A stretch of 43,429 nt of DNA from a virus. Its lineage: Duplodnaviria > Heunggongvirae > Uroviricota > Caudoviricetes. The DNA lies in IMG/VR virus record IMGVR_UViG_2522572023_000001, one strand, 5' to 3'. A program made the position numbers. Below are positions 10,551-13,500 of this stretch, one piece after another. Position 1 is the first letter of the stretch. Each line of letters starts with the position of its first letter.

Positions 10551-13500
10551 TAAGACATTCCCGCTCTTACACATCCCAGCCCTGAAAAAGGGCATCAAAA
10601 TAAACCACACCTATGGTGTATGCATTTATTTGCATACATTCAATCAATTGTTATCTAAGGAAATACTTACATATGGTTCGTGCAAACAAACGCAACGAGG
10701 CTCTACGAATCGAGAGTGCGTTGCTTAACAAAATCGCAATGCTTGGAACTGAGAAGACAGCGGAAGCTGTGGGAGTTGATAAGTCGCAGATCAGCAGGTG
10801 GAAGAGGGATTGGATTCCAAAGTTCTCAATGCTGCTTGCTGTTCTTGAATGGGGTGTCGTCGACGACGACATGGCTCGATTGGCACGACAAGTTGCTTCG
10901 ATTCTCACCAATAAAAAACGCCCGGCGGCAACCGAGCGTTCTGAACAAATCCAGATGGAATTCTGAGGTTATTACTGGAACTATCAACAGGAGTCATTAT
11001 GACAAATACAGCAAAAATACTCAACTTCGGCAGAGGTAACTTTGCCGGACAGGAGCGTAATGTGGCAGATCTCGATGATGGTTACGCCAGACTATCAAAT
11101 ATGCTGCTTGAGGCTTATTCAGGCGCAGATCTGACCAAGCGACAGTTTAAAGTGCTGCTTGCCATTCTGCGTAAAACCTATGGGTGGAATAAACCAATGG
11201 ACAGAATCACCGATTCTCAACTTAGTGAACCGCCCCGGGAATCCTGGAGACTAAACTTCCTGAGAAAGAGGTAAACAGGATGACTAAAAATACTCGTTTT
11301 TCCCCTGAAGTCCGTCAACGGGCAGTCCGTATGGTTCTGGAAAGTCAGGGCGAATATGACTCACAATGGGCGACAATTTGTTCCATTGCTCCAAAGATTG
11401 GCTGTACGCCGGAGACTCTGCGTGTCTGGGTTCGCCAGCATGAGCGGGATACCGGGGGCGGTGATGGAGGGCTCACCACCGCTGAACGTCAGCGTCTGAA
11501 AGAGCTGGAGCGTGAAAATCGTGAACTGCGCCGCAGTAACGATATCCTTCGCCAGGCTTCCGCTTATTTTGCGAAGGCGGAGTTCGACCGCCTCTGGAAA
11601 AAATGATGCCACTGCTGGATAAGCTGCGTGAGCAGTACGGGGTCGGACCGCTATGCAGCGAACTGCATATTGCCCCGTCAACGTATTACCACTGTCAGCA
11701 ACAGCGACATCATCCGGATAAACGCAGTGCCCGTGCGCAGCGCGATGACTGGCTGAAGAAAGAGATACAGCGCGTATACGATGAAAATCACAAGGTATAC
11801 GGTGTGCGTAAAGTCTGGCGTCAGTTGTTACGGGAAGGTATCAGAGTGGCCAGATGCACTGTGGCACGTCTCATGGCGGTTATGGGACTTGCCGGTGTTC
11901 TCCGGGGTAAAAAGGTCCGTACGACCATCAGCCGGAAAGCCGTTGCCGCAGGCGACCGCGTAAACCGTCAGTTCGTGGCAGAACGACCTGACCAGCTGTG
12001 GGTGGCTGATTTTACTTACGTCAGCACATGGCAGGGCTTCGTCTATGTGGCGTTCATCATTGATGTGTTTGCCGGATACATTGTGGGGTGGCGGGTCTCA
12101 TCGTCCATGGAGACGACATTCGTGCTGGATGCACTGGAGCAGGCGTTATGGGCCCGTCGACCGTCCGGCACGGTCCATCACAGTGATAAAGGTTCTCAGT
12201 ATGTATCGCTGGCCTACACACAGCGGCTTAAGGAAGCCGGATTACTGGCATCAACAGGAAGTACAGGCGACTCGTATGACAACGCGATGGCGGAGAGCAT
12301 CAATGGTCTTTACAAAGCGGAGGTAATACACCGTAAGAGCTGGAAAAACCGTGCAGAAGTGGAACTGGCCACACTCACGTGGGTGGACTGGTATAACAAT
12401 CGACGATTGCTGGAAAGGCTGGGCCATACTCCTCCGGCAGAAGCAGAAAAAGCTTATTATGCTTCCATCGGAAACGATGATCTGGCAGCCTGAGTTCACA
12501 GATAAAACACTCTCCAGGAAACCCGGGGCGGTTCAGCCAGCAAACCAAAACTCGACCTGACAAACACAGACTGGATTTACGGGGTGGATTTATGAAAAAC
12601 ATCGCCGCACAGATGGTTAACTTTGACCGTGAGCAGATGCGTCGGATCGCCAACAACATGCCGGAACAGTACGACGAAAAGCCTCAGGTACAGCAGGTAG
12701 CGCAGATCATCAACGGTGTGTTCAGCCAGTTACTGGCAACTTTCCCGGCGAGCCTGGCTAACCGTGACCAGAACGAACTGAACGAAATCCGCCGCCAGTG
12801 GGTTCTGGCTTTCCGGGAAAACGGGATCACCACAATGGAACAGGTTAACGCAGGAATGCGCGTAGCCCGTCGGCAGAATCGACCATTTCTGCCATCACCC
12901 GGGCAGTTTGTTGCATGGTGCCGGGAAGAAGCATCCGTTATCGCCGGACTGCCAAACGTCAGCGAGCTGGTTGATATGGTTTACGAGTATTGCCGGAAGC
13001 GAGGCCTGTATCCGGATGCGGAGTCTTATCCGTGGAAATCAAACGCGCACTACTGGCTGGTTACCAACCTGTATCAGAACATGCGGGCCAATGCGCTTAC
13101 TGATGCGGAATTACGGCGCAAGGCTGCCGATGAACTGTCCTGTATGACCGCACGAATTAACCGTGGTGAGGCTATACCTGAACCAGTAAAACAACTTCCT
13201 GTCATGGGCGGTAGACCTCTAAATCGTGCACAGGCTCTGGCGAAGATCGCAGAAATCAAAGCTAAGTTTGGGCTGAAAGGAGCAAGTGTATGACGGGCAA
13301 AGAGGCAATTATTCATTACCTGGGGACGCATAATAGCTTCTGTGCGCCGGACGTTGCCGCGTTAACAGGCGCAACAGTAACCAGCATAAATCAGGCCGCG
13401 GCTAAAATGGCACGGGCAGGTCTTCTGGTTATCGAAGGTAAGGTCTGGCGAACGGTGTATTACCGGTTCGCTACTAGGGAAGAACGGGAAGGAAAGATGA

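Follow-up and report, generated by a model that had tools for sequence, protein, structure and literature searches.

Gene distribution in the O-P region of the prophage

The window analysed here, the whole 43,429-nucleotide (nt) stretch of the virus record IMGVR_UViG_2522572023_000001, shows 100% identity to positions 787268-830696 of the chromosome of Escherichia coli O145:H28 RM12761 (NZ_CP007133.1), and the chromosome of a second O145:H28 strain, RM13516, is likewise 100% identical to it. It contains ybhC, a lambda attachment (att) core and then nearly the entire length of a roughly 43-kb lambdoid prophage, in which the replication gene O is interrupted by the insertion sequence (IS) IS629 and has lost the 613 bp adjacent to it. 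The two strains were isolated from food and from humans, respectively, in the ice-cream outbreak of 2007 in Belgium (PMC4032123). The region containing O and P shows the following features:

10999..11225, + strand: 5' fragment of O, encoding the replication initiator; lambda O nt 1-227, that is, 75 codons plus 2 nt
11226..12535, + strand: IS629 (IS3 family), 1310 bp, apparently intact, assigned by full-length identity to annotated IS629 copies
11226..11250, + strand: left terminal inverted repeat (IRL) of IS629, 25 nt, pairing with 12511-12535
11280..11606, + strand: IS629 orfA, 108 amino acids (aa), with an HTH_Tnp_1 domain
11603..12493, + strand: IS629 orfB, 296 aa, with HTH_21 and the rve DDE integrase core
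12511..12535, + strand: right terminal inverted repeat (IRR) of IS629; the deletion begins just outside it
12536..12595, + strand: 3' remnant of O, the last 19 codons plus the stop codon, lambda O nt 841-900
12592..13293, + strand: replication gene P, intact, 233 aa (Pfam Phage_lambda_P, E = 1e-61)

The coding sequence that remains of O, whose full-length product has 299 aa, corresponds to residues 1-75 and 281-299, with the IS between them. A first-pass annotation of this DNA had read O as normal for 75 codons, and the protein encoded by the 5' fragment is indeed 100% identical to lambda O through all of them. This fragment shows 99.6-100% identity to O of the phages lambda, 434 and 21, and its blastn match to lambda stops at O nt 227. 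Its open reading frame (ORF) continues into the IS as far as 11274, and the Pfam profile Phage_rep_O is covered only at positions 2-57 of 95. The 3' remnant lies directly after IRR, as the same annotation had noticed, and its translation, ASKPKLDLTNTDWIYGVDL followed by the stop, is the lambda O C-terminus; it ends at 12595 and overlaps the ATG start of P at 12592. In RefSeq, the Prokaryotic Genome Annotation Pipeline (PGAP) labels both pieces as pseudogenes: the 5' fragment as "replication protein, missing C-terminus" and the 3' remnant as "replication protein O, missing N-terminus". The window has an intact P but no full-length O, and its replication module of the lambda type is incomplete.

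The element in O, described at first as a 1310-bp member of the IS3 family with perfect 14-bp terminal inverted repeats, is IS629. Its inverted repeats extend to 25 nt, of which 23 (92%) are complementary, and the outermost 14 nt are perfect (TGAACCGCCCCGGG / CCCGGGGCGGTTCA); the ends of the element fit the 5'-TG...CA-3' of IS3-type elements, and so does its length of about 1.3 kb. It shows 99.8-100% identity over the full length to the copies annotated as "IS3 family IS629" in the Shiga toxin (Stx) phage records LC567824 and LC567828, and the O157-type copy, called IS1203 by PGAP, is 96% identical to it. The overlap between orfA and orfB falls on an A6 run at IS position 373, which is the predicted site of a -1 frameshift, and PGAP annotates an IS3 family transposase with programmed frameshift together with an "AL1L pseudoknot". 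Only one copy of IS629 is found in the window and, with its inverted repeats, orfA and orfB intact, it looks active.

The triplets bordering the IS are TAG on the left and GCC on the right, which confirms the earlier remark that the 3-bp target-site duplication is missing. It is missing because of the adjacent loss of 613 bp, and its absence counts against a simple insertion only, not against the identity of the IS. A megablast of the whole region against phage records gives matches dominated by the IS, and neither of the two junctions is spanned by any phage record. An assembly artefact is ruled out: the same structure, with a full and clean-ended IS, is present in two separately deposited complete genomes.

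The prophage occupies the classical lambda attB, between ybhC and ybhB-bio, because one att core sits at ybhC and the other right before ybhB-bioA. The left core lies within the window:

1331..1345, + strand: lambda att core (attL), an exact copy of GCTTTTTTATACTAA

The attR core is the same 15-bp sequence at positions 831761-831775 of NZ_CP007133, about 1.07 kb past the window end. The part of the prophage outside the window is short and contains only espJ.

Extent of the deletion and loss of the replication origin

Alignment of both O fragments to lambda gives the exact extent of the loss, put earlier at about 200 codons: 613 bp, or 204 1/3 codons, corresponding to lambda positions 38913-39525. 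The same 613-bp loss is found against the closest intact relative, the prophage of E. coli O103:H2 20151001. This prophage has a chromosomal location (about 850 kb) close to that of the window prophage, shows 99.9% identity upstream of the lesion, and shares with the window prophage the protein accessions of cI, cII, P, Ren and NinB.

In lambda, the replication origin (ori) is a cis-acting element inside O, the O protein is the origin-binding initiator, and the region just 3' of the iterons holds an A+T-rich unwinding segment. All four iterons annotated in lambda (39034-39118), as well as the region 3' of them, fall inside the missing interval, which bears out the first reading that ori was lost together with O. 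The TAG that borders the IS on the left is about 120 bp upstream of the position of the first iteron. Intact iterons or a full-length O elsewhere were searched for in the window and not found: it contains no iteron-like sequence with up to three mismatches, tblastn gives no second homologue of O, and the deleted segment has no copy in it. The PGAP annotation of the prophage shows no alternative replication system, and the one large gene left without annotation (15301-17073) matches only PHROGs of unknown function. Because O and ori are both gone, the prophage, deprived of its initiator and of the origin that acts in cis, should have no lambda-type replication of its own after induction, as the first-pass annotation had also expected.

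IS insertions in O of other prophages

Junction-specific queries were run on 5,426 complete E. coli genomes. The deletion joint, IRR/GCCAGC, was found only in RM12761 and RM13516, and an exact 32-mer scan of IMG/VR and of the metagenome contigs of JGI gave no match to it. Three other genomes show related alleles of O. E. coli O157:H7 F6294 shares the left junction (O nt 227/IRL): an IS629/IS1203 copy is inserted at exactly the nucleotide hit in the window, and its orientation also agrees. Its TAG is duplicated (3 bp, at locus positions 3118-3120 and 4431-4433) and the rest of O is kept with the iterons, which makes it a simple insertion. Strain 124 also has a simple insertion, 13 bp downstream of the TAG site, with a GTT duplication and ori kept. 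The IS copies of F6294 and strain 124 belong to another subtype than that of the window; between the F6294 copy and the window IS there are 52 differences in 1310 positions (96.0% identity). The cat isolate Z1323PEC0008 contains the IS subtype of the window (6 differences in 1310) in the same orientation. Its right junction is IRR/TAG-CGAG, with the TAG at locus positions 3121-3123 and the 3' part of O intact, and on the left side a truncated foreign cII-like gene (locus positions 1700-1820) adjoins IRL, so that it is the mirror image of the window lesion. This left side is either the result of a leftward deletion or an IS-mediated chimera of prophages. Other genomes show IS3-type insertions in O near nt 240, 351, 444, 472, 552 and 806, as located from the spans of two-piece matches.

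The TAG at O nt 225-227 (window positions 11223-11225) is thus the target of an IS629-type element, always in the same orientation, in RM12761/RM13516, F6294 and Z1323PEC0008, and it was hit by two IS subtypes that show 52 differences in 1310 positions (F6294 against RM12761 and Z1323PEC0008). A preference of IS629-type elements for this TAG, with homing to the vicinity of the lambdoid origin, perhaps to DNA that the O protein bends or unwinds, would give this pattern, and we hold it to be unlikely. If it were true, IS629 would be a recurrent and semi-specific inactivator of prophage replication in enterohemorrhagic E. coli (EHEC). The alternative is that the repeated use of TAG goes back to one old O::IS allele that spread by recombination and then underwent gene conversion of the IS, together with selection for replication-dead prophages; the insertions in O could equally be the retention of those insertions that disarm the prophage. 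A target preference near the origin is possible but unproven.

IS3-family elements are also present elsewhere in the early region. The counterpart prophage of O103:H2 20151001 has an IS3-family copy of its own between gam and kil (locus positions 1984-3197), and in many other genomes, E2865 and 02E060 among them, the cII-O region contains an element of this family about 0.5 kb further upstream. These copies illustrate that the early region, both gam-kil and cII-O, is often struck by elements of this family.

Origin of the deletion

The first-pass annotation had attributed the lesion to an IS-mediated adjacent deletion. This is the most economical reading of the structure, although another process, considered below, leaves the same scar. 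We consider it very probable that an IS629 insertion followed by an adjacent deletion turned this prophage, together with a tail-gene deletion and a gam frameshift, into a replication-dead and cargo-bearing dead-end remnant. An IS629 would have inserted in O of a lambdoid prophage at lambda attB, at O nt 225-227, with TAG as its target. A later deletion would then have started exactly at the outer end of IRR, leaving the IS whole, and would have taken 616 bp, namely the right copy of TAG plus 613 bp of O, by which the target-site duplication would have been lost. The deletion may have been driven by the transposase, possibly with the assistance of IEE. The data show directly the structure, the exact extent of the loss and the absence of another O or ori; we infer the order of events, how the deletion came about and its effect on replication.

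The reading as an adjacent deletion is strengthened because F6294 shows a plausible precursor state, in which an insertion at this very nucleotide has its TAG duplicated and O is otherwise complete. At the deletion joint there is a 2-bp CA microhomology, in which the terminal CA of the IS coincides with the CA before the end point in intact O (GTGACA/GCC); it is compatible with a history of insertion and then deletion, without being diagnostic of it. A 2009 study by Ooka et al. is reportedly the key paper on small deletions associated with IS629. For the IS3 family, IS-adjacent deletions are on record (PMC8860574), and IEE-dependent excision of ISs produces adjacent deletions that range from a few nucleotides to more than 40 kb (PMC9943667). 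The iee gene is present in RM13516 (PMC5567499), a strain with 89 ISs of which IS629 is the commonest (PMC3893438).

Several points weigh against this history. The scar, a single IS with no duplication, is the same for a one-ended deletion and for recombination between two IS copies, and none of the complete genomes searched shows a simple insertion of the window's IS subtype with both junctions. Since its IS differs at 52 of 1310 positions, F6294 is a separate insertion event at this site and not itself the ancestor. The replication defect itself is expected from the biology of lambda, and defective prophages may be rescued by recombination or amplified by the regional replication of their neighbours (PMC2669165); a second place in the RM12761 chromosome matches part of the cI-cII-O 5' region.

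Recombination between two copies is the strongest competitor, and we regard it as clearly less probable, though it deserves serious consideration. It supposes two IS629 copies in the same orientation in O, one at the TAG of nt 225-227 and the other at about nt 838-843, and a RecA-dependent event that deleted one copy and the 613 bp between them. The product would be the observed scar, with the left flank of the first copy, the right flank of the second and no matching duplication. O is repeatedly hit by IS3-type elements (at nt 227, 240 and several other positions), and the abundance of ISs in RM13516, with IS629 in first place among the 89, also suits it. Nevertheless, it requires one prophage to have been hit twice within 613 bp, and none of the 5,426 genomes shows an IS at about O nt 840 or two copies in one O, while an adjacent deletion from a single IS saves one event and has precedents in the IS family.

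It is also conceivable that the two flanks come from different prophages, joined by IS629-mediated recombination between prophages, in which case nothing would have been deleted as such. Such recombination is a real process in EHEC, and Z1323PEC0008 has the same IS subtype with a foreign cII-like gene on its left. Nevertheless, a chimera is very improbable in the window, because both flanks match one intact prophage: they are collinear and near-identical with that of O103:H2 20151001, down to five identical protein accessions. In addition, attL, attR and the flanking host genes are found in their normal order.

Excision functions and further lesions

The window also contains the genes for excision:

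1419..2489, - strand: lambda-type integrase gene (int), intact, 356 aa (Pfam Phage_integrase and Arm-DNA-bind_1)
2467-2685: xis, after int, from the PGAP annotation

Genes int and xis and both att cores are intact, and cI and cro also look intact. Given these intact elements, excision of the prophage should still be possible, and the excised circle would fail to replicate and be lost.

Further on, it contains a fused gene:

36254..36703, + strand: FII'-'J fusion ORF, identified with PHROGs and Pfam Ig_GpJ_C (context 35830-37343)

According to PHROGs, residues 1-45 of its product match the head closure protein Hc1 (FII) and residues 41-149 match tail fibre protein J at its C-terminal end; that is, the first 45 residues or so of FII are joined to the last 108 or so of the tail-tip protein J. 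The deletion has therefore taken the tail genes from Z to I along with most of J. PGAP gives the order FI, J fragment and lom in this region, and the side tail fibre genes remain. The FII-J joint has no IS and is a second deletion, independent of the lesion in O. The set of tail genes Z to J, which lambdoid phages require for infectious particles, is incomplete. PGAP also annotates gam (6371-6666, - strand) as frameshifted, with 296 nt against the 297 nt of its O103:H2 counterpart, whereas exo and bet look intact. The O/ori lesion is not the only block to spread, since the tail-gene deletion and the gam frameshift are also present.

Cargo genes and their mobility

The prophage carries as cargo the morons lpxR, perC, lom, nleH, cif, a frameshifted gene with a DUF1076 domain and espJ, together with a gene for a nanS-like esterase. 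The gene for the lipid A deacylase and those for effectors of the type III secretion system (T3SS) are located as follows:

19645-20604: lpxR, lipid A deacylase
39098-39979: nleH, T3SS effector
40203-41030: cif, T3SS effector
just past the window end: espJ

The cargo, to which the first-pass annotation had given no names, is not Shiga toxin: no stx gene is found between Q and the lysis genes, where, apart from the nanS-like esterase gene (23238-25088), there are just one hypothetical gene, one DUF3927 gene and a small pseudogene. Between ninE and ninG there are two additional genes: one encoding a 590-aa protein of PHROG 9230, function unknown, which has no Pfam or PADLOC match (15301-17073, - strand), and one encoding an HNH endonuclease (17538-18185, + strand). 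The O103:H2 relative has ninF at the same place, and the two genes appear to be a moron inserted among the nin genes.

The first-pass annotation had considered the cargo to be locked into the chromosome. The part of this claim that concerns replication stands, whereas the intact int, xis and att cores leave excision possible. A cargo that is still mobile, through Int/Xis excision followed by rescue, either by recombination with a resident prophage sharing cII-O-P or by helper packaging, is quite improbable in our view. The intact excision functions speak for it, as does the second partial cI-cII-O match in the RM12761 chromosome, and defective prophages of O157 Sakai circularise, are amplified by regional replication, are packaged by helpers and recombine (PMC2669165). 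Conversely, an ori that acts in cis is not suppliable in trans and the tail genes are missing too; Sakai Sp3, which was scored as lacking replication function and has a disrupted integrase, showed no circularisation, replication or packaging (PMC2669165). Because Sp3 showed none of these processes, and yet other defective prophages of Sakai are rescued, "dead end unless rescued" is a fairer description of this prophage than "locked".

Comparison with known systems

The lesion was compared with four known systems. With respect to the O-ori-P region of phage lambda, the 5' fragment of O, the 3' remnant of O and P show 97-100% identity and the gene order cII-O-P-ren-ninB is the same; unlike lambda, the window prophage has lost the four iterons together with the sequence just 3' of them, as well as 204 of the codons of O. 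Prophage Sp3 (CP-933K) presumably lies between ybhC and ybhB, too, and has genes for T3SS effectors. Like the window prophage, it is a degraded lambdoid prophage, and it was scored as lacking a replication function (PMC2669165). They differ in that Sp3 has a disrupted integrase and no repressor, whereas int, xis, cI and cro of the window prophage look intact and its replication defect has one identifiable cause.

The O::IS629-type alleles of F6294, strain 124 and Z1323PEC0008 affect the same gene in the same orientation, and those of F6294 and Z1323PEC0008 also share the TAG. F6294 and strain 124 differ from the window in being simple insertions of the other IS subtype (96% identity), with 3-bp duplications and ori kept, and Z1323PEC0008 in that the opposite, left side is lost or replaced. 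Finally, with IS629 (also IS1203 or IS1203v) in EHEC prophages in general, the window shares the element, the -1 frameshift, the lambdoid prophage habitat and a strain with iee, as well as the inactivation of a gene and a deletion from the IS end. Nothing differs in kind; the particular target in O, with removal of ori, and the joint were found only in the RM12761/RM13516 clone.

Significance

The literature search found no paper on this lesion and none that joins IS629, "replication protein O" and prophage, and two comparative-genomics papers on O145:H28 do not mention it. As a type of event, it is already known: ordinary prophage decay of a thoroughly studied class, whose fragments are already pseudogenes in RefSeq. 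IS629 has repeatedly been named as a main driver of prophage diversification (PMC9943667), and the window adds one more example of this element eroding EHEC prophages. The deletion joint, clone-specific in the collections searched, is of use for annotation and for strain typing. For the 2007 Belgian O145:H28 outbreak clone, the structure gives a base-exact reason why a prophage that carries effector genes should be unable to replicate, and it cautions that a prophage which has lost its replication is not thereby fixed in the chromosome.

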